In this document: in pieces, positions 18,753-44,836 of the stretch
Position numbering within the stretch: the first letter of the stretch is position 1
Layout: each line of letters opens with the position of its first letter
DNA from: a virus
Strand: one strand, 5' to 3'
DNA length: 64,000 nucleotides
Virus record (IMG/VR): IMGVR_UViG_3300037245_001320
Span: 32,001 to 96,000 of that record
Translations under genes and position numbers: made by a program
The notes under the pieces: generated by a model
What the model was told of the DNA's origin: nothing
The model's input: the letters and a program-made list of their open reading frames with translations, nothing else
Databases searched by the model: none

Positions 18753-21488
18753 AAGAAAGAAACGAGATAAAGCAACTAATACAAAACTTGACTTTAATCT
18801 ATATCCAAAACAGAAGTTGGCTATGGATGGCGGGGCCAACGAGATATTATACGGAGGAGCAGCAGGGGGTAAATAATACTGCTCCCTTTAAATCTCTCTT
18901 TAACGGGGAAACTCTTAACAGGTAAAGCTGAAGACAATCCCGTGGGAAGACACTTGAATGAGTGTAACCTGTAACGACTAGAGCATTGTGCTCGTACATC
19001 ACAAGCGATTGGTGATGGAAATGGGAGACAGAGTAAAATCTGAAGAGATAGTCTGATCTCATAGGAAACTATGAGCAGTTCATTTGAGAACGTGATCAAG
19101 GGTAGCGACTTGGTTAGAACATTATTGGGTAAATCACATTTATTGAGAATATCAGCTATAACATATTGTTTATCTTCCCCAGGTGTCCAAGTATATCTAT
19201 TTAGAAAGCAATTGACAGATTTGATTAAAGGTCATTTAAGTTCTGAGTCAGGGTTTCCTAGTTTATTATCTGGACTAGTAGATGCTAAATTATGTAAGAT
19301 AGATATGTCGAGATACAAAATAACCTTTAAAAATGGTTCAGGGGGGAATAGCTGGGCGGGTGGCTCAACTATCCACCTCAGTCACCTTTCTAAAGGAAAA
19401 AATTCATTAAATAATTATCAAGGTGCGGAGATACATGTGCTAATGTTAGATGAGGCAACTCACTTTTTAGCATCTAGTTACAAGTATTTAAGAACAAGGG
19501 TAAGGCTTGGTGGATGGAATCCTCCAGCAGAAGGTCCTTATAGTGGGGACTACTACCCCCGAATTTTAGCTTGCTCGAATCCTGGCGGCTTAAGTCATTC
19601 ATTTTGGAAGAACGAATTTGTGGATAGATTGGAAGATTATGTACCAGAGTTAATGCCTCCTGAACAAGGTGGTATGAGACGAATGTATATTTCTGCGAAA
19701 ATAACGGATAATGCTATCCTCATGAAAAACGATCCTACATATGTCTCAAGACTACTAGCCAGTGGAGAGAAATCTTATGTGGAAGCTTTATTACATGGTA
19801 AATTATTGCCCTTTATAATAGTGATATTATAATTAGCACAACTTTAATTGCTGGAAACTCTTGTTAGGTTTCAGGTACAAAGAGAAACAAATGTTTCTCT
19901 CGTGACAATCCTGAAAATAAAGACAATCAGCAGCGAAGACAGAAGGGAACTTCTGTAACGTTCATCGACTATCCCGTGAGGGAGTAGAGAGGTAGTCCTC
20001 TCGAAACAGGTTGCAACTCAAAAGAGTTGAAGATATAGTCAATTCTTGCAGGAGACTGTAAGCAGTTCATAAGAGAACGTAATTAGATTAACGATCTGGT
20101 TAGAATATAAAAGAATTGGAATATTTCCATGGGAGGAATCCTACAAGATGACTTCTCCTTTGATATACACATTTTGGATGATTTTGAAATACCAAAGAAT
20201 TGGGATGTGTACAGATGTTTTGACTGGGGTAAAAACTTGCTCCCCTTGACAGTAATGTTAAGTGTAAAACAACTTTAATTGCTGGAAACTCTCGCTAGGT
20301 TTCAGGTACTCACAGAACTTTGTTCTGAAGTAAAAATCCTGAAAATAGAGACAATCAGCAGCCAAGACAAGCATAAGCTTGTAAGGTTCAACGACTAGAG
20401 CATAAGCTCGTAGGGAGGTAGTCCTTCCGAAACAGGTTGCCCACAGAAATGTGGTGAAGATATAGTCTATTCTATATGGAGACATATAGCAGTTCAGTAA
20501 TGAGAACGTATTCAGATTAACGCCCTGAGTAGAATATGCAAGGCAGCAAAACCCTTCGGTTGTATTTGGTTTGCAGAATCAAACGGAGAAGCAGTAGAAT
20601 TAGCAGACAAATCAGTAGTTACTTTTCCTGTAGGAACAGCTATAGCAATGAGAGAATTGTATGGTTGTAAAGAAGGGGAGTATGATGTCGGAGTTAATAT
20701 CACAGATAAGCAAATAGGAGAAAGAATTAAAGAAACAGAAGAGGTTTTCTTAAAAGGTTATAATATTAAAGCCGGTCCTGGGGACGGTAGTTGCTGGGGA
20801 AAAGCGAACAAAGAATTTTCAATTATTGATGATATTAACCATGGTTATTATGGAAGAAGAATATCAGATAATGAAAGACTATTCAAAAGGTTTCTAAAAC
20901 CCAAACATTCAAGAGTCGAGGGGTTTAGTTTAATTAGAACTAGATTAAGAAACTCATTACCATTTGCAGAAGGAAAGATGGAAGAGCAAGGATTATTCTT
21001 TTTAAGGGGATGTAAACATATGATAAGGACAATTCCTACACTTCCTCGAAGCGACTCGAATCCCGACGATTCTTCCCCTCATGCAGAAGACCATTTAGCA
21101 GATAAACAACTATTGTCTGCCTAGCCTGTGAAGGTTAGTAAACAACTTTGTTAATTGCTGGAAACTCTTGTTAAGTTATAGGTACTCGTTAATTCAGTAA
21201 AAATCCTATAAATAGAGACAATCAGCAGCCAAGCCTGAAAAGGAAAGGTTCAACGATCATCGAAAGGGACAAAATAACTTGTCACTGAGTAGAGTACATC
21301 CAAGTGGATGGAAACGCAAAGCTCTCAGAAATGAGATGAAGATATGATCTAGCCTATATTGAGAAATATAGAAGTTCCTACGAGAACTGCAATAAAAGTA
21401 ACGAATTATTGTGAATACAGCGGTGTTAAGATATTACCTACTAAAGAAAGTTTCTAAAGTGGGTCAAGCTAGGGTGACATTATTTTGA
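18745..21488 (+). CDS. terL: Terminase large subunit in 5 exons: 18745-18870, 19128-19799, 20114-20230, 20543-21103, 21423-21488 (513 aa)
   Basis: Joining the exons restores Walker A YGGAAGG|GKS, Walker B MLDEATH, SNPGG, LLHG|NWN, FDWG|AAKPF and EDHLAD|VLRY; all exon lengths are multiples of 3. Confidence 0.92.
18871..19127 (+). ncRNA. Group I intron 1 in terL (257 nt, ORF-less)
   Basis: 5' exon ends in U, intron ends in G; IGS GCUCCCU pairs with exon AGGGGGU (U.G at splice site); P7 GACUA/UAGUC. Confidence 0.9.
19800..20113 (+). ncRNA. Group I intron 2 in terL (314 nt, ORF-less)
   Basis: U|...G| boundaries; AAUUGCUGGAAA, AAUCAGCAG, CGACUA and GAAGAUAUAGUC core elements. Confidence 0.9.
20231..20542 (+). 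ncRNA. Group I intron 3 in terL (312 nt, ORF-less)
   Basis: IGS GCUCC pairs with GGGGU; same P/Q/R/S elements; close in sequence to intron 2. Confidence 0.9.
21104..21422 (+). ncRNA. Group I intron 4 in terL (319 nt, ORF-less)
   Basis: IGS GUCUGC pairs with exon GCAGAU; P7 variant GAUCA/UGAUC is a compensatory change. Confidence 0.9.
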
Positions 21489-21519
21489 TAGTACAGACAA
21501 AAACTTAAGTCAAGTGCTA

Positions 21520-21543
21520 AAAAAATTCCCACTATGGTATAAT
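21520..21543 (+). promoter_or_regulatory. Conserved 24-bp phage promoter, copy 3
   Basis: AAAAAATTCCCACTATGGTATAAT. Confidence 0.85.
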
Positions 21544-21549
21544 GTATAT

Positions 21550-21726
21550 ATAGGAAGGTTCGCATCTTCCTTAAGGTACAGTAAAATAGAGTCTCAAAGA
21601 ATCAATAAGAAAAACATATAAAAACCTCTTATTAGATCAGAAGTTAGGAAGAACTTTAAAGGATTTACTCTATTACCTTTGAAGTTCTATGCGAAACCTA
21701 ATGGAAGATCTAATAAGAGGTTTTTC
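21550..21726 (+). ncRNA. Structured leader RNA A (hairpin, long stem, two pseudoknots) upstream of HNH gene 1
   Basis: 19-bp perfect stem 21620-21638/21707-21725; two loop-loop complementarities; same fold as 33608-33780. Confidence 0.75.
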
Positions 21727-21748
21727 ATTTAAAAAAGGAATAAAAATA

Positions 21749-22762
21749 ATGAAACCAAGAGAAGTATCGCACAGATACAACAAAGCAAATGTTATGGTAA
21801 ACAAAGAACAGAAAGAGAAGATGTGTTCTGTTTGTAACAAAGTGAAAAGCCATAAGGAGTTCAATAAATCTTCTTCAAACAAAACAGATAGGTTAGCTGG
21901 AAGATGTAGAAAATGTGAACTTTCTCTACGGTATATAGTAAAAGACACACCTACTACAAAAGCAAAGAAATATAATAAAGACCACCAAGAAGAAAACTTA
22001 AAAAATAAGGAAAAGATGTGTGTATCATGTAATATAGTAAAGCCCTTAGAAGAGTATAATAAAGATAAAGCACGAAAAGATGGTAAGCAATCAGTGTGTA
22101 GACCCTGTAGGCAAGCATTTTACACTACTAATGACCAAAAGAAAAAAGCGAGGATGTATGATGATACCCCTGAGAGAAAAGCATACGAAAAGGAGCGAGC
22201 ACAGAGACCTGAGAGAAAAGCTTATTGTAAGGCACTCAGTAGCACACCTAGAGCAAGAAAACAACAAAAAGAGCATAGAAGTAGACCAGAAGTAAAAGAA
22301 AGACAAAGAGAGTTAAGTAAAATGCCTCATAGAAGAGCAACCACCAATGCATACAGGCAAAGTATAAGAGACAGACCAGAAGTTAGAGCTATGAATGCTA
22401 TGAGGGGAATTATACATAACACAGTAGCTAAGTTTGGAACTAAGAAAGAAAATAAAACTGTAGAAATAACAGGATACTCAGCTAAAGAGCTTATATCACA
22501 TTTAAACAAAGGGAAATACAAATGGAAAGACTATATGAAAAACACACATAAAAATATACTCTTCCACATCGACCACATCATACCCATATCCTATTTTGTA
22601 AAGAAAGGAAGAGAGTATTCAAAAGAAGAGCTAAATAAACTTATTTCTCGTGTCAATGATTTAAGAAATCTTAGAATATGGCCAGGAAGATTAAATGAAT
22701 CTAAGCATGATAAAATAGACAGGGATTTAATCAGAGAACATGGAATAGAGGATCTTCTTTAA
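21749..22762 (+). CDS. HNH endonuclease with N-terminal zinc-finger repeats (paralog 1)
   Basis: Two K.C..C...K...F/Y......C..C units, basic RPE repeats, HIDHIIP...NLR....N.SK; ATG 21749 has the RBS. Confidence 0.8.
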   Translation: MKPREVSHRYNKANVMVNKEQKEKMCSVCNKVKSHKEFNKSSSNKTDRLAGRCRKCELSLRYIVKDTPTTKAKKYNKDHQEENLKNKEKMCVSCNIVKPLEEYNKDKARKDGKQSVCRPCRQAFYTTNDQKKKARMYDDTPERKAYEKERAQRPERKAYCKALSSTPRARKQQKEHRSRPEVKERQRELSKMPHRRATTNAYRQSIRDRPEVRAMNAMRGIIHNTVAKFGTKKENKTVEITGYSAKELISHLNKGKYKWKDYMKNTHKNILFHIDHIIPISYFVKKGREYSKEELNKLISRVNDLRNLRIWPGRLNESKHDKIDRDLIREHGIEDLL

Positions 22763-22780: not shown

Positions 22781-22809
22781 TTGACACAACGACAGATAAA
22801 TAATACAAT
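22781..22809 (+). promoter_or_regulatory. Sigma70-type promoter opening the accessory block
   Basis: TTGACA-N17-TACAAT. Confidence 0.7.
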
Positions 22810-25212: not shown

Positions 25213-26385
25213 ATGACAGAATTAACAGGAAAATACACAAGCTGTAAAATATTTACAGACTACACAGAGCAATCAGCTATAAGTCAGGTATATGAGTTTT
25301 TAAATCATCCCGCATTTGAAAATAAGAAAACAAGGTTCATGCCGGACATTCACGCAGGCTCAGGAGCAGTAATAGGAACAACAGTAGAATTAGGAGACAA
25401 AGTTATTCCAAACACAATTGGGGTTGACATTGGATGTGGCATGTACTCAGTTAAGCTTTCTACAAAGGAAATTAACTATAAAGCTTTAGATAGAAATATC
25501 AAGCAGAATGTCCCTTCAGGATTTAACATGAATAACAAACAACAGGCAATTCCTAAATTGTTAGAGCGAGATATTGTATCAACCTGCAAAGAAATTGGGA
25601 TTGAAACTCATAGAGCCTTATTTTCTTTGGGCAGTTTAGGTGGAGGCAATCATTTCATCGAAATTGGGAGGGATGAACAAAATTTTCTTTGGTTAACTAT
25701 TCATTCGGGATCCAGAAACTTTGGCTTACAAATAGCTAAGTATCACCAGAAGATAGCAGAGCAAAATTATTCCAACCCTAAACCTGATTTAACAAATGTT
25801 TCTCCAAAGGAAAGAGAAGCTTATATAAGAAAGTTCAAAGAGACAAGAGTTAAAATACCAAAAGGCATGGAGTATTTAACAGGAGCAGATAAAGAAGCTT
25901 ATGAACTTCATATGCGTATTGCTCAAAGATATGCGTCTGAGAGTAGAAAGATTATGGTCAGAAACATCCTAAAGACTTTAGATTGTGCTGTATTAGAAGA
26001 GATTGAATCAATCCACAACTATATAGACTTCGAGCATGGTATCATTAGAAAAGGAGCTATTTCAGCACAGAAAGATGAGTTGGTTATTATCCCTTGGAAT
26101 ATGAGAGATGGTTTAATTATAGGCAGAGGTCTAGGTAATCCAGACTGGAACTTCTCAGCACCTCACGGAGCAGGAAGAACTATGTCCAGATCCCAAGCTA
26201 AGAAAGAAGTTAACTTAGATGAGTTTAAAGCATCAATGGAAGGGATTTATTCTTCATGTGTTTCTGAATCTACACTAGATGAATCTCCTATGGCTTACAA
26301 GGACCACACTGAGGTTGAGAAATATCTAGAAGAATCAGTAGAGATTCTACATAGAGTTAAACCAGAATATAATTTTAAAGCATAA
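25213..26385 (+). CDS. rtcB: RtcB family RNA ligase
   Basis: MPDIHAG, GVDIGCGM, GSLGGGNHFIE, HSGSR, HNY, RKGA, SAPHGAGR, DESPMAYK. Confidence 0.95.
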   Translation: MTELTGKYTSCKIFTDYTEQSAISQVYEFLNHPAFENKKTRFMPDIHAGSGAVIGTTVELGDKVIPNTIGVDIGCGMYSVKLSTKEINYKALDRNIKQNVPSGFNMNNKQQAIPKLLERDIVSTCKEIGIETHRALFSLGSLGGGNHFIEIGRDEQNFLWLTIHSGSRNFGLQIAKYHQKIAEQNYSNPKPDLTNVSPKEREAYIRKFKETRVKIPKGMEYLTGADKEAYELHMRIAQRYASESRKIMVRNILKTLDCAVLEEIESIHNYIDFEHGIIRKGAISAQKDELVIIPWNMRDGLIIGRGLGNPDWNFSAPHGAGRTMSRSQAKKEVNLDEFKASMEGIYSSCVSESTLDESPMAYKDHTEVEKYLEESVEILHRVKPEYNFKA

Positions 26386-32036: not shown

Positions 32037-33518
32037 TTGCAAAAAGAAAAAATTAAATTATTCAGTACCTTCACAGGAATAGGTAGCCCAGAGATGGCTA
32101 TGAGAAACATAGGATTGGATTTTGAGGTCGTAGGTATATCAGAAGTAGATAAGTGGGCTTTACAAGCTTACGACGCTATCCATTGTGAGAATGAACCAGA
32201 ACCAGAATACCCAACAAAAGAAGAAATGAAAGAATACTTCCTAGAAAAGAATATAGCTTACAACTTCTCCACAGGTAAATCAGAGATGCCTAGAAATGAA
32301 AGAGATCTACAGAGATTATATAAAGCACATAAGAGAAGTCGAAATTTTGGGGATATCAGATTGATAGATGAACACAATCTACCTGAGTTTAACTTCTTCA
32401 CATATAGCTTTCCATGCAAAAATATATCAGTTGCAGGTACACAATCAGGTTTAGATGAAGGATCAGAGACCCAATCATCCTTACTATGGGAGTGTAAAAG
32501 ACTAATAGAAGTAAACAAACCTAAATACCTCTTAATGGAGAATGTTAAGAATCTTGTAGGTAAGAAGTTCAAACCACTATTAGAGTTATGGATAGAGACT
32601 TTAGATGAACTAGGATATAAATCATCTTATAAAGTATTGAATGGTAAAGATTTTGGAGTACCTCAGAATAGAGAAAGAGTTATGATGATTTCTATTTTAG
32701 ATGATGGAGAAGAAGATTATATTTTTCCAGAAGGACAACCACTAGATATATGTCTACATGATGTGTTAGAGCCTAAAGTAGATGAAAAGTACTATATCAA
32801 CCCTGAGAAGTACAAGCATATAACAGCACCTTTACCCTCACAAGAAATAAGCTATTGTATTGATGCTAATTATCATAAAGGTATTTCTGTAGATCAATAT
32901 ATCTTGAAGAGAAGAAGACAATTAGTTCAGGTAGGTAATCTAGAGAATAAGATTCATTCTAATACCAGAGTTTATGCTGAGGAGGGATTAAGTCCAACTT
33001 TAAATAGTATGAATGGAGGCAACAGACAACCTAAGATCCTAGTAGACGGATGTGCTATAAGAGGTAGGACTCCTAAGGGAGAAGGCAAGGATACCCCTGT
33101 AGAGCAGAGATTAGAGATAAACAAACATGAGGGTGTTTCTAACAGTATAACCACTGTAGGGAAGGATAGTCTTGTTTGTGAGACATCTTATGGGGGAAGA
33201 ATCGTAGGTAGAAATCCAGATAATCCCAAAAGCAGAGTAAAAGGACTACCTACTGTACAGATGTTAGAGTTGAATAAAAACCCTGATATCTCTAATACTC
33301 TGTCTACCGTTCAAAAAGATTCTGTGGTAATGAATACTCATAGGAGAGTTAGAAAATTAACACCTCTAGAATGTTGGAGACTAATGGGCTACACAGATGA
33401 AGATTTTGAGAAGAGCAGGGACAAGGGGTTTTTAGCAAACACAAAGTTATACGAGAGAGCAGGAAGAGGAATTGTAGTTCCTATGCTTGAAGCATTACTT
33501 ACAAATCTATTTTATTAA
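32037..33518 (+). CDS. C5-cytosine DNA methyltransferase family protein (probable carboxymethyltransferase, multi-TRD)
   Basis: FTGIG, GDI, YSFPC, MENVKNL, PQNRER, RKLTPLECWRLMG; motif X reads AGRG instead of AGN(S/A). Confidence 0.9.
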   Translation: MQKEKIKLFSTFTGIGSPEMAMRNIGLDFEVVGISEVDKWALQAYDAIHCENEPEPEYPTKEEMKEYFLEKNIAYNFSTGKSEMPRNERDLQRLYKAHKRSRNFGDIRLIDEHNLPEFNFFTYSFPCKNISVAGTQSGLDEGSETQSSLLWECKRLIEVNKPKYLLMENVKNLVGKKFKPLLELWIETLDELGYKSSYKVLNGKDFGVPQNRERVMMISILDDGEEDYIFPEGQPLDICLHDVLEPKVDEKYYINPEKYKHITAPLPSQEISYCIDANYHKGISVDQYILKRRRQLVQVGNLENKIHSNTRVYAEEGLSPTLNSMNGGNRQPKILVDGCAIRGRTPKGEGKDTPVEQRLEINKHEGVSNSITTVGKDSLVCETSYGGRIVGRNPDNPKSRVKGLPTVQMLELNKNPDISNTLSTVQKDSVVMNTHRRVRKLTPLECWRLMGYTDEDFEKSRDKGFLANTKLYERAGRGIVVPMLEALLTNLFY

Positions 33519-33577: not shown

Positions 33578-33601
33578 AAAAAATTCCCACTATGCTATAA
33601 T
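33578..33601 (+). promoter_or_regulatory. Conserved 24-bp phage promoter, copy 4
   Basis: AAAAAATTCCCACTATGCTATAAT. Confidence 0.85.
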
Positions 33602-33607
33602 AGAGTT

Positions 33608-33780
33608 AAGAGGAAACTGAACCATCCTCAAAAACTACTTGACATTCTGATAAAAGTAAATTAAAATTGGAGAATATATAAGAACTCCATTTAAATGAAA
33701 ACAGGAGAATAATAAAGATTTCAGAATGGTCTTTAAAATATTCGGTTCAGACCTGTGGAAACTTAGATGGAGTTCTTTTT
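33608..33780 (+). ncRNA. Structured leader RNA B upstream of HNH gene 2
   Basis: 15-bp stem 33680-33694/33763-33777; CUGAACC/GGUUCAG and CAUUCUGA/UCAGAAUG pairings; same fold as RNA A. Confidence 0.75.
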
Positions 33781-33793
33781 ATATAATAGGTAA

Positions 33794-34855
33794 ATGAGTA
33801 AAGAAAAAGAGAAAGATGTTGTTAGTGTTGGGATGAAGAAGTGTAGAACTTGTGGGAAAGAGAAGGAATCTACTTTAGAGAACTTTCACGCAGGAAGAGG
33901 AAGCAAAGGAGGATTTCTACTTGATTGTAAAGAATGCAAGCGAGCCAAGGAAAGAGGAGACAAATATTATTTAGAACACTTTGAAAGAGAGGAAGACACT
34001 ACTCCAGCAGGATATAAGAAATGTAGTGATTGTGGGAAAAATAAAGAACAAACTGCTGAGTTTTTCCACAGAGACAAAGGATTTAAATCAGGCTTTAAGG
34101 CAAGATGTAAAGATTGTGAAAATATTATTAGAAACAAGCCAAAAAGAAAAGCCAACGATAAAAAACAAGCACAGAACCGCAACGCTAGACCAGAAGTAAG
34201 AATTCAGAGAAAGGAACAGAGAAAGGAATATAAAGCTAGACCAGAAGTTACGAAACACACTAAAGAGTATAATAAAGAATATTTATCTAGACCAGAAGTT
34301 AAGAAACATACTAAAGAGTATCATAAAGAATGGTATAAAAAACCAGAAAATAAAGAACGTAAAAAACAACAAGATAGGATAAATTCCCAAAAGCCTGAAA
34401 ATAAAGCTAAAAGAGCTGAAAGACGCAGAGAAAGATACAAAAATGAACCCTTATTTAGAATAAGGGTTAATCTTAGCAGAAATTTTTCCAGTCAGCTAAA
34501 AACACTTGGAACAAAAAAGCCCTCTGGAACTATGACTTATACAGGATGTACAAATGAAGAACTCTTAAAACATTTAAACACAGGCGAGTACACAATGAAG
34601 GACTACATGACAAACACCCCTTTGGAGACCTTCTTCGATTTTGATCACATAATACCTTCTCAGTATTTCTTAGATAGAATTAAAACAGATGAAAACGATA
34701 AAATAACAAAAGAGACACTTCCTTGGTTGCATAATTGGTGGAGCTACAGAAACATGAGGATTTGGCCTCATATACCCAATATTATTAAAGGAAAGAATAT
34801 AGATCAGGAGCTAATAGCTAAACATGGTATAGAAGATCTGTTAACTATAGATTAA
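33794..34855 (+). CDS. HNH endonuclease with N-terminal zinc-finger repeats (paralog 2)
   Basis: Two KKC..CGK.KE...F......CK.C units, RPEV repeats, DFDHIIP...NMRIWP...N..K, C-terminal LI..HGIEDLL shared with paralog 1. Confidence 0.8.
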   Translation: MSKEKEKDVVSVGMKKCRTCGKEKESTLENFHAGRGSKGGFLLDCKECKRAKERGDKYYLEHFEREEDTTPAGYKKCSDCGKNKEQTAEFFHRDKGFKSGFKARCKDCENIIRNKPKRKANDKKQAQNRNARPEVRIQRKEQRKEYKARPEVTKHTKEYNKEYLSRPEVKKHTKEYHKEWYKKPENKERKKQQDRINSQKPENKAKRAERRRERYKNEPLFRIRVNLSRNFSSQLKTLGTKKPSGTMTYTGCTNEELLKHLNTGEYTMKDYMTNTPLETFFDFDHIIPSQYFLDRIKTDENDKITKETLPWLHNWWSYRNMRIWPHIPNIIKGKNIDQELIAKHGIEDLLTID

Positions 34856-43564: not shown

Positions 43565-44836
43565 TTGGGTGGAGTAACAACTTTAACAACAGAGAAGATA
43601 AATGAGAAAATGATTCCAAAGGGATTCAAATTATTAACTACGGAATATAGTAATAATAGTACAGTAATGGAATGGGAATGTCAAGAGTGTCTGGGTACAT
43701 TTCCAGATAAACTAATTAACTTACAGAGAAGTTTAAGATGTAAATGCTGTAATGGTGTAAAGAAGCATAGTGTAGAAAGTATTAGAGAAGAGTTCTTAGT
43801 AAAAGGGTTTGAGCTATTAAGCACAGAATATGTAGATAATACCACAGGGATGGAATGGAAACATTTAGAATGTGGGGAAGTATTTCCTTGCGGGTTAAGA
43901 AATATGCAAAGAGCCTTATATTGCAGAGTTTGCGAAGGACCTAATGAGTACACAGTCGAAAGTATAAGAGGACAAATACAACCTTTCGGAATATTCCTAT
44001 TAAGTGAGGAGTATACAAATCAAGATCAACTATTAAATTGGGTGTGTATTCATTGTGGACATGAGTGGGAGAAGAGTAGAACAGTAATGACTGATCATTG
44101 TTTTTGTCCTGAGTGTCGAGATGATAAGCCTTTAAGCATGATAGAAATAAATGAAAGAATGAAGAAAAGACCTTTTATTTGTATTACAGAAGGTATTCAT
44201 TTAAGATCAGCACAAGTAGAGTGGCAGTGTACTAATGAAGAATGTAAACACACTTGGTTTAGGTCGTTTGTAGAAACAGGAGCTTGGGGTGGAGATTGTG
44301 TTGAATGTAGAGACCATAAACCCTATACAGTACAGTTTATTAAAGAGAAGTTATTAAATGATGAGAGAAATATTGTAGTAGTAACAGATCTCCCAGATGA
44401 AACACTTACACCCGCCGTAACTAATATGAGATGGAAATGTCTTATATGTACACAAGAATGGCCTACAGTTGTAGGTTCTGTTATGAGTGGAGAAACAGGA
44501 TGCCCTAAGTGTAATAAAACTTCTGTAAATAAGATTATTGCTGAAAGAAATAAAAAGCAATGGTTAAAAGAAGATGGAAAGGTATATGTTATAAAATGCT
44601 GGGATGAAGAAACAGGAGAAGTATTTTACAAAATAGGGGTAACAATACGAAAGACAGTAAACAGAACTTATGAAATACCCTACACATGTGAGGTACTTAC
44701 AGAAATAAACACAAATAGACACGATATGTATTATATAGAGCAGGATTTACATCAAATAAACTCTGCTACAAGTTACTTACCAAAGAAACACTTTGGAGGG
44801 AAGCACGAATGCTTTTCTAGTGTAATAGGATTTTAA
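43565..44836 (+). CDS. Free-standing homing-endonuclease-like protein: ~5 zinc-ribbon repeats plus a C-terminal GIY-YIG/T5orf172-like domain
   Basis: Repeated LL..EY......W.C..C........C..C; VYVIK...FYKIGVT....R...E...H...G..ECF. Confidence 0.7.
   Translation: MGGVTTLTTEKINEKMIPKGFKLLTTEYSNNSTVMEWECQECLGTFPDKLINLQRSLRCKCCNGVKKHSVESIREEFLVKGFELLSTEYVDNTTGMEWKHLECGEVFPCGLRNMQRALYCRVCEGPNEYTVESIRGQIQPFGIFLLSEEYTNQDQLLNWVCIHCGHEWEKSRTVMTDHCFCPECRDDKPLSMIEINERMKKRPFICITEGIHLRSAQVEWQCTNEECKHTWFRSFVETGAWGGDCVECRDHKPYTVQFIKEKLLNDERNIVVVTDLPDETLTPAVTNMRWKCLICTQEWPTVVGSVMSGETGCPKCNKTSVNKIIAERNKKQWLKEDGKVYVIKCWDEETGEVFYKIGVTIRKTVNRTYEIPYTCEVLTEINTNRHDMYYIEQDLHQINSATSYLPKKHFGGKHECFSSVIGF

Follow-up and report, generated by a model that had tools for sequence, protein, structure and literature searches.

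A self-complementary leader RNA ahead of nuclease genes in uncultured phages, with a candidate role in limiting homing-endonuclease expression

An uncultured marine-sediment phage, represented by the single virus record IMGVR_UViG_3300037245_001320 (154,018 base pairs [bp], 33% G+C), carries immediately 3′ of its large-terminase gene (terL, ending at ~21490) a folded RNA of ~175 nucleotides (nt), situated between a conserved phage promoter and the gene for an HNH-type nuclease, HNH-A. Positions without further label refer to the window, the 64,000-nt stretch that was analyzed, which comprises bases 32001-96000 of the record. The element, termed copy A (21550-21726), belongs to an undescribed RNA family, so far limited to a small clade of uncultured phages, of which we located 11 copies on 8 contigs, four of them (A, B, C, and D) in the 154-kb phage genome. 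Both long-range pairings of the RNA, between a hairpin loop and a bulge and between a linker and an apical loop, are kept in all 11 copies, with letters that differ between copies. With moderate confidence, we regard copy A as the leader of a mobile module of promoter, leader RNA, and homing-endonuclease gene, in which it would act as a promoter-proximal attenuator that limits expression of the nuclease.

Fold of the leader RNA and covariation among its copies

The promoter that precedes copy A has no -35 box and is missed by simple consensus scans. It occurs in 12 near-identical copies in the 154-kb genome, several of which precede packaging or head genes, the portal gene included; judging from the genes downstream of its copies, it is probably of late type. 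Copy A begins ~7 nt past the -10 element, and its parts are arranged as follows.

21519-21543, +, conserved phage promoter: A-run, TTCCCACTATGGTATAAT, and -10 element at 21538-21543; predicted start near 21550
21552-21571, +, 5′ hairpin H1, AGGAAG (21552-21557) paired with CTTCCT (21566-21571), from sequence and fold
21559-21565, +, box1 TTCGCAT in the H1 loop, 7 bp with the 3′ bulge
21585-21592, +, box2 AATAGAGT in the single-stranded linker, 8 bp with the apical loop; duplex estimate -7.0 kcal/mol
21593-21619, +, A-rich spacer, of which the segment 21601-21611 is able to pair with the 5′ arm of the basal stem (candidate antiterminator)
21620-21725, +, long terminator hairpin (106 nt), from fold and self-BLAST
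21620-21638 with 21707-21725, +, basal stem of 19 perfect bp, from self-BLAST
21639-21642 (AGAA) with 21703-21706 (GGAA), +, purine internal loop between the basal and middle stems
21643-21648 with 21697-21702, +, middle stem
21650-21662 with 21676-21688, +, upper stem
21663-21675, +, apical loop with box2′ ACTCTATT (21667-21674)
21689-21696, +, 3′ bulge with box1′ ATGCGAA (21689-21695)
21721-21729, +, T tract (TTTTTCATT), predicted intrinsic-terminator signal
21735-21739, +, ribosome-binding site AAGGA of HNH-A, whose ATG is at 21749-21751; both 3′ of the hairpin and unpaired in the minimum free energy (MFE) fold

The nested fold of copy A has an MFE of -53.3 kcal/mol (z = -6.2), a stability reached by none of 200 shuffled sequences, and its long hairpin amounts to a 38-bp interrupted duplex with an internal loop on the 3′ side. 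Each kissing contact is worth about -6.5 to -9.7 kcal/mol by duplex estimates; H1 alone can form two extra pairs that must open for box1 to pair with the bulge. An initial annotation of the locus, made from the sequence alone, had listed these pairings for copy A, and every one of them is present. It had also described the stem as closing with 19 perfect bp followed by a T tract: the 19 bp stand, but the last five of them are A5/U5 pairs, so the T tract at 21721-21725 is the 3′ end of the stem itself, and CATTT comes next. Similarly, some of the bases it had considered conserved and unpaired are not, since the CCT after the bulge is the 3′ strand of the middle stem. A longer open reading frame (ORF) from the ATG at 21689 was rejected, as it has no ribosome site and its ATG is part of the bulge. 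Purine loops of the GAAA/GGAA type occupy the equivalent place of the internal loop in copy B and in the copy on contig L029; the symmetric loop of copy A may form a tandem G.A motif or serve as a protein or tertiary contact site.

Copies C and D, which lie on the minus strand outside the window, were found by folding the DNA after every promoter copy, and the seven further copies (on contigs L029, L030, L032, L114, L115, L245, and L246) by using HNH-A and HNH-B as protein queries and then inspecting the matching contigs. The parts stand in the same order in all 11 copies: promoter, hairpin with box1 in its loop, box2 linker, A-rich spacer, hairpin of ~100 nt, T run, ribosome site, and ORF. 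In all but one of the 11, the stem is followed by four or more T, with an AAGGA-type ribosome site 10-25 nt beyond. Over the 11 copies, box1 pairs with the bulge over 6-8 bp and box2 with the apical loop over 6-9 bp, the weakest instance being box2 of L032 (5 of 6). The initial annotation had ascribed to copy B the same topology with other pairing letters, and CTGAACC/GGTTCAG and CATTCTGA/TCAGAATG bear this out.

Copy A: box1 TTCGCAT, box2 AATAGAGT
Copy B: box1 CTGAACC, box2 CATTCTGA
Copy C: box1 TTGACCC, box2 CCAGTG
Copy D: box1 TAGTCC, box2 AGCTAC
L029: box1 TTCGACC, box2 TCCACTA
L030: box1 TTCGTAC, box2 CTCACAAA
L032: box1 TGAATC, box2 imperfect
L114: box1 CTGAACAT, box2 ATCGTACAA
L115: box1 TTGACC, box2 CCTGTA
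L245: box1 CTGAATA, box2 ATCGTACA
L246: box1 TTGAAGC, box2 CAGCGT (one G.U)

33584-33780, +, copy B leader: promoter 33584-33601, RNA 33608-33780
33610-33629, +, copy B H1, with box1 at 33617-33623; box2 follows at 33643-33650
33680-33777, +, copy B hairpin: apical loop TCAGAATG at 33721-33728, bulge GGTTCAG at 33744-33750, T tract at 33776-33780
Genome 116458, -, copy C promoter
Genome 150377, -, copy D promoter

Because a MAFFT alignment of all copies was not structure-consistent, the pseudoknot pairs were counted with matrices of cognate versus non-cognate matches, in which only the H1 loop was compared with the bulge and only the linker with the apical loop (nine copies). Cognate box-loop matches average 6.1 and 6.8 nt, versus 3.9 and 4.3 nt for non-cognate ones; only 4/72 and 7/72 non-cognate pairs reach 6 nt, and some of these are boxes truly shared among related copies. 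A covariance model built from copies B and L029 only (R1) scores copy A at 58.5 bits (E=2e-8), L030 at 49, D at 48, and L114 at 33. A second model from seven members (R2), with copy C outside the training set, returns exactly four copies over the whole 154-kb genome (B 164, A 119, D 110, and C 54 bits), each directly preceding a nuclease gene; nothing else in the genome lies below E=0.02, and below E=0.1 only the reverse strand of A. In the model-fitted alignment, which is biased towards the structure used for its fitting, pairing in the nested helices reaches 95.5% (72% in shuffles), both sides change in 27 of the 36 nested pairs, and the covariation score is 0.75, compared with 0.28 for shuffles and 0.10-0.17 with partners slid. 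For the basal helix, compared over 7 copies, the paired fraction is 99% and both sides change in 12 of 15 pairs; for H1 it is 100%, with both sides changing in 3 of 4. The covariance models and the cognate-pair statistics thus support the proposal of the initial annotation that a selected, structured RNA is maintained here by covariation.

The check that this annotation had suggested, namely to collect the upstream regions of HNH homologues, build a covariance model, and compare it with Rfam, recovered the family without an Rfam match. An Rfam cmscan of 21480-21800 at E up to 10 gave no C4 (RF01695), c4-a1b1, or HEARO, the best match of any family being a miRNA model at 18.8 bits, and a gathering-threshold scan of the whole window returned group I introns only. 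No locus was recovered from IMG/VR by single-protein searches. Scanning the same database for the promoter pattern gave 26 loci, among which only L006 and L007 are from related phages, both without a leader at those promoters; a motif scan with TTCGG-N5-ACCTGTGGAA gave chance matches, none confirmed by R2, and a basal-stem pattern scan gave zero matches. R2 misses the weakest copy, L032, so its negatives are not absolute, and the hand-written scanners, being either too strict (missing C and D) or too loose (29 weak matches), served as a rough negative screen only. One further candidate, L062, scored 29 bits and was rejected as a plain terminator beside tRNA genes. Other identities rejected for the leader were a group I intron fragment, as the Rfam introns lie elsewhere and the leader has no match, and a riboswitch or self-cleaving ribozyme, for both of which a conserved unpaired core is absent.

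Nuclease genes behind the leader

The genes that follow the leader are of several kinds. HNH-A is predicted to be a free-standing nuclease of the HNH type; it contains two CxxC...CxxC modules and, towards its C-terminus, the motif DHIIP...N...N. In Pfam it has only a sub-threshold match to the Stc1 zinc finger, and RuvC was not found.

21749-22762, +, HNH-A, 337 amino acids (aa)
33794-34855, +, HNH-B, downstream of copy B and followed by the portal gene

Copy C precedes a 397-aa protein that joins a Rha N-terminus to a T5orf172 domain (GIY-YIG superfamily), and copy D a 193-aa helix-turn-helix (HTH)-HNH protein, while the L246 leader precedes a repeat protein and then a gene for an HNH C-terminus. 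The basal stem is nearly identical in copy C, L032, and L115, of which the first stands before the Rha/T5orf172 nuclease and the other two before HNH genes. The view that the RNA travels with one nuclease family, put forward in the initial annotation, is therefore not upheld: the RNA precedes HNH, HTH-HNH, Rha/T5orf172, and repeat-protein/HNH genes, and no copy of it was found by R2 and the rough scanners at ~80 loci of distant HNH homologues.

Nuclease genes without the leader also occur among closer relatives. On contig L027, a 460-aa close HNH homologue before the portal gene has a plain terminator, with neither promoter nor leader. A third HNH paralogue of this phage (L118; genome 98914-97834, minus strand, outside the window; 331 aa, treble-clef zinc finger and HNH) is preceded by the same conserved promoter and, at the transcript start, by a plain hairpin and T run in place of the long leader. 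Among the structural genes of the window, at 43565-44836, lies a 423-aa paralogue of nuclease C (24% identity) with treble-clef zinc fingers; it has a sigma70-like promoter (TTGACA...) and no leader RNA. These arrangements suggest that a nuclease gene behind a stop signal is the constant theme, and that the elaborate leader is one solution, used where a strong conserved promoter drives the gene.

Comparison of this phage with contig L029 points to leader and nuclease gene moving together as one module. Similarity between the two continues past the terL stop up to the promoter, after which both the leader and the HNH gene (31% identity) diverge; the portal-gene cassette is absent in L029 and present in L030 and in this phage. 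The gene that follows HNH-A has a sigma70-like promoter of its own at 22781-22809, so nothing downstream depends on read-through.

Side observations concern individual cassettes. In L029 (9990-10003), the HNH start region (GGTAATAGA, just before the ATG) is a 9-nt perfect complement of the apical loop of copy A (TCTATTACC, 21670-21678) and not of L029's own loop, the two cassettes occupying the same site after terL; this match may be left over from a loop-to-start pairing of A type, or be due to chance (~0.08 expected among 110 comparisons). The HNH gene of L032 (430-520) has an early in-frame stop after the first zinc-ribbon motif, and as its leader is the weakest of the family, leader and gene may be decaying together. 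In L246 (1750-3574), the leader is followed by a 355-aa protein of ~six 58-aa repeats and then by a separate 201-aa gene whose similarity to HNH-B (55% identity) is confined to the C-terminal HNH half of the latter; the pair may be a split or two-part homing endonuclease.

Close isolate relatives of the phage are absent, its portal protein being <33% identical to that of any isolate phage. Among sequencing runs, a single DNA run, a marine sediment metagenome that is probably the source sample, contains most of the window, and no RNA run was listed. Both HNH cassettes, searched against isolate phages for near-identity and by protein, have no near match and distant protein matches only. The TerL of contig L029, 483 aa and uninterrupted, maps at 90-100% identity to four separate exons in the window, so that three of the four group I introns matched by Rfam split terL; the fourth match (18795-19075) lies upstream of the mapped TerL start at 19092.

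19092-19799, 20114-20230, 20543-21103, and 21423-21485, terL exons, from the L029 TerL mapping
~19800-20113, 20231-20542, and 21104-21422, ORF-less group I introns inside terL, from Rfam

The two phages are 90-100% identical in terL and only 62% identical in the portal protein, a contrast suggestive of recent exchange or gene conversion in a region where introns and nuclease genes abound. The 13-kb block between terL and the portal gene also contains genes for an RtcB-type RNA ligase and a C-5 cytosine DNA methylase (25213-26385 and 32037-33518).

A proposed promoter-proximal attenuator and its alternatives

The fold, its covariation, its terminator signal, and the association of the module with nuclease genes are direct observations, from which we infer termination, its efficiency, and the part played by the kissing contacts. 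Transcription would start near 21550 at the conserved promoter, and most polymerases would halt at the 19-bp stem and U tract (21620-21729), releasing the ~175-nt RNA. The ribosome site of HNH-A (21735-21751) would then be present on read-through transcripts only, so that a strong late-type promoter would give little nuclease. Box1 in the H1 loop would dock on the 3′ bulge and box2 in the linker on the apical loop, giving a compact double-kissing fold that may tune the stop; docking would probably disfavor the hairpin between spacer and 5′ arm and shield the released RNA. As both contacts are compatible with H1 and the long hairpin, they suggest a static compact fold rather than an obvious switch.

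The position of the stable stem and U tract, between the promoter (21526-21543) and the ATG at 21749, and its sequence are those of an intrinsic terminator. The candidate antiterminator duplex between spacer and 5′ arm is estimated at -7.1 kcal/mol in copy A, a value reached by 0.8% of shuffles (p=0.008; p<0.002 for L029), and spacer-arm complementarity exceeds that of shuffles in 6 of 9 copies. In truncated transcripts, the spacer is predicted to hold the 5′ arm before the 3′ arm is made in 5/9 copies; for copy A, when the transcript is ended ahead of the 3′ arm, 10 bases of the 5′ arm are paired with the spacer in the MFE fold.

In a minority of relatives, the apical loop also complements the cognate start region, in the spacer between the Shine-Dalgarno (SD) sequence and the AUG (background -3.0 kcal/mol), which could add translational repression in the manner of P1 C4.

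L114, loop with start region: 11 nt, -14.7 kcal/mol
L245, loop with start region: 12 nt, -15.9 kcal/mol
L246, loop with start region: 7 nt, -10.5 kcal/mol

Between L114 and L245 there is one compensated change, the loop reading ..GATT versus ..GATG and the start region AATC.. versus CATC... Box2 in these three copies looks like an upstream mimic of the start region, which is the a1/a2 relation.

Several points weigh against attenuation as the whole explanation. A simple terminator scanner misses the hairpin of copy A, its loop limit being 8 nt, and the candidate antiterminator is absent from three of the nine copies (L030, L032, and L115). A 19-bp basal stem should terminate unaided, so attenuation alone leaves the two conserved kissing contacts unexplained. 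Finally, boxes and loops are ~50% identical between copy B and L029, while the scaffold stems are 83-89% identical, a divergence for which selection on RNA-RNA specificity, as expected of an RNA acting in trans, is at least as good an explanation as a purely structural role.

The main rival, which we consider unlikely yet worth keeping, is accordingly that the 175-nt RNA, once released, would act chiefly in trans, as an antisense regulator like P1 C4 and P4 CI: its loop and bulge would recognize, on further transcripts from its own cassette, either the boxes or the start region, the cis pairing merely masking or storing the RNA, with cassette-specific feedback or exclusion between co-infecting genomes as the consequence. 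The layout matches, in that two loops of the leader stem-loop are complementary to upstream boxes; the pairing partners of P4 CI are seqA on its upstream side and seqC on its downstream side (PMC4825925), and C4 RNAs have the c4-a1b1 motif upstream of them (PMC2864571). The faster divergence of boxes and loops, the mutually non-matching boxes of the four copies in one genome, and the loop-start pairing in L114, L245, and L246 all favor it. However, copy A and seven other copies have no downstream site, the best matches (3-5 nt) being background: within 150 nt downstream, the loops of copy A find 4-5 nt at best, and its loop against the start region gives 4 nt and -2.4 kcal/mol, likewise background. 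Exact box1 and box2 within 80 nt of each other occur, across the whole genome, in the cognate leader only, both for A and for B; in the released RNA both loops would already be occupied in cis; covariance-model similarity to C4 or c4-a1b1 is absent; and the setting is a late-region nuclease gene of a large phage, no immunity genes having been noted near the leaders. The C4/CI-like attenuator envisaged in the initial annotation thus keeps its box-loop layout and its terminator just before the nuclease gene and loses the match to the C4 model and, in copy A, the downstream site of a2/b2 type. A trans role is retained as the main rival because the upstream half of the C4/CI arrangement is present, three relatives show loop-start pairing, and the boxes diverge.

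Less probable still is that the leader is chiefly an element of RNA stability or processing, a 5′ protective domain or RNase III-type site that sets half-life with termination secondary. Its 5′ end is tucked inside the compact fold, many other transcripts of the same promoter also start with a small 5′ hairpin, and the 38-bp duplex with its 3′-side internal loop would suit such a site; against this, ordinary 5′ hairpins protect elsewhere in the genome without a kissing partner, and the T tract kept in 10/11 copies points to termination. Binding of the RNA to the nuclease, either as a restraint akin to type III toxin-antitoxin systems or as a scaffold or guide like HEARO/omega RNA for IscB, appears improbable. 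Systems of the ToxIN type have a promoter, a pseudoknotted RNA, a leaky terminator, and a harmful enzyme, an order that the present loci resemble, and the RNA always adjoins a nuclease gene. But the proteins encoded behind a single RNA subfamily (C, L032, L115) are unrelated, being Rha/T5orf172 in one case and HNH in the other two; two close HNH homologues, in addition to the ~80 distant ones, lack the RNA, which argues against a guide or scaffold role; and self-BLAST of the leader shows an inverted repeat only, with tandem repeats absent. The guide or scaffold proposed in the initial annotation is made unlikely by the same sharing of the RNA among unrelated nucleases, by the lack of a RuvC domain and of a HEARO match, and by the fact that every variable segment (boxes, loop, and bulge) is self-complementary in cis, leaving no free guide. 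That the element is an ordinary long terminator, with box-loop complementarity by chance or as an AT-rich by-product, is very improbable: many weak candidates do appear when the genome is scanned loosely for hairpins with two 6-7-nt matches around them, and whole-region scores of non-cognate combinations are fairly high, but with the comparison limited to loops, cognate exceeds non-cognate in nearly every copy, the same two contacts recur in 11 copies in differing letters, and in the 154 kb the covariance models single out the copies, nothing else falling below E=0.02.

The attenuator reading bears on how free-standing homing endonucleases persist, as they need expression just sufficient for spread without harm to the phage. 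To our knowledge, the expression limiters described for such genes are a few simple hairpins and terminators, all from T4-like phages. Here, an RNA family of 11 members goes with nuclease genes of unrelated types and has its clasp sequences rewritten in every copy. This opens the questions of whether long-range kissing contacts tune intrinsic termination and whether self-complementary leaders like those of C4/CI arose independently outside the immunity regions of temperate phages. That the apical loop can pair next to the start codon in three relatives suggests a route by which evolution may pass between attenuation alone and antisense control of translation. If the contacts are specific and functional, the copies form a natural set of mutually orthogonal terminator/antisense parts. 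More tentatively, each cassette may carry a private RNA lock and key, the abundant terminated leader being a cassette-specific antisense RNA that recognizes its own boxes or start region. If so, one nuclease would be shut off in a dose-dependent manner while several cassettes coexist without cross-talk; the RNA might decide between co-infecting phages with different alleles at one site, as in this phage and L029 after terL; and a new class of orthogonal RNA-RNA regulators would be built into the terminator.

Relation to known leader RNAs

The leader shares with ToxIN loci the order of promoter, pseudoknotted RNA, terminator, and enzyme. It differs in having no tandem repeats, in that the enzymes are DNA nucleases (HNH or T5orf172) rather than an RNA-processing toxin, and in that the RNA is not specific to one protein family. 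A parallel in output is IsrK of Gifsy-1, whose short terminated isoform acts on the long read-through isoform and activates its translation (PMC4825925): here, too, one promoter is predicted to give a short terminated RNA and a read-through mRNA, and the short form can pair with the long one, although copy A has no pairing site on the read-through part and no sequence similarity to IsrK.

The C4 RNA of P1/P7 (RF01695; c4-a1b1, PMC2864571) and the CI RNA of P4 (PMC4825925) likewise combine a leader stem-loop with upstream boxes whose sequences vary between relatives. The likeness to a2/b2 of C4 is limited to the apical loop in L114, L245, and L246; copy A and most copies lack a downstream site, and covariance-model similarity is missing. 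In addition, the present stem-loop is itself a predicted intrinsic terminator of ~100 nt, not a 70-77-nt RNA cut by RNase P, and it precedes a homing-type nuclease behind a late-type promoter rather than the antirepressor or replication operon of a temperate element.

In the T4 family, homing-endonuclease genes are restrained by intrinsic terminators and leader hairpins, among them terminators located in both mobE and segF, a hairpin of very high stability directly preceding the ribosome site of seg43(25), and hairpins that sequester the ribosome-binding site (RBS) in I-TevI, segB, and mobE (PMC2988022). These elements are simple hairpins without upstream boxes that pair with a loop and a bulge, and they do not constitute one recognizable RNA family common to different nuclease genes. 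Sequestration of the RBS as in I-TevI does not occur in the MFE fold of copy A, where both RBS and ATG are exposed 3′ of the hairpin. Rather, as at seg43(25), the hairpin stops just short of the RBS without covering it, and as in the T4 family generally, a terminator or stable hairpin lies near the start of a selfish nuclease gene whose neighbor has its own promoter. Functionally, the leader is a variant of two known kinds of element, the attenuator leaders of homing endonucleases and the self-complementary leaders of the C4/CI type.

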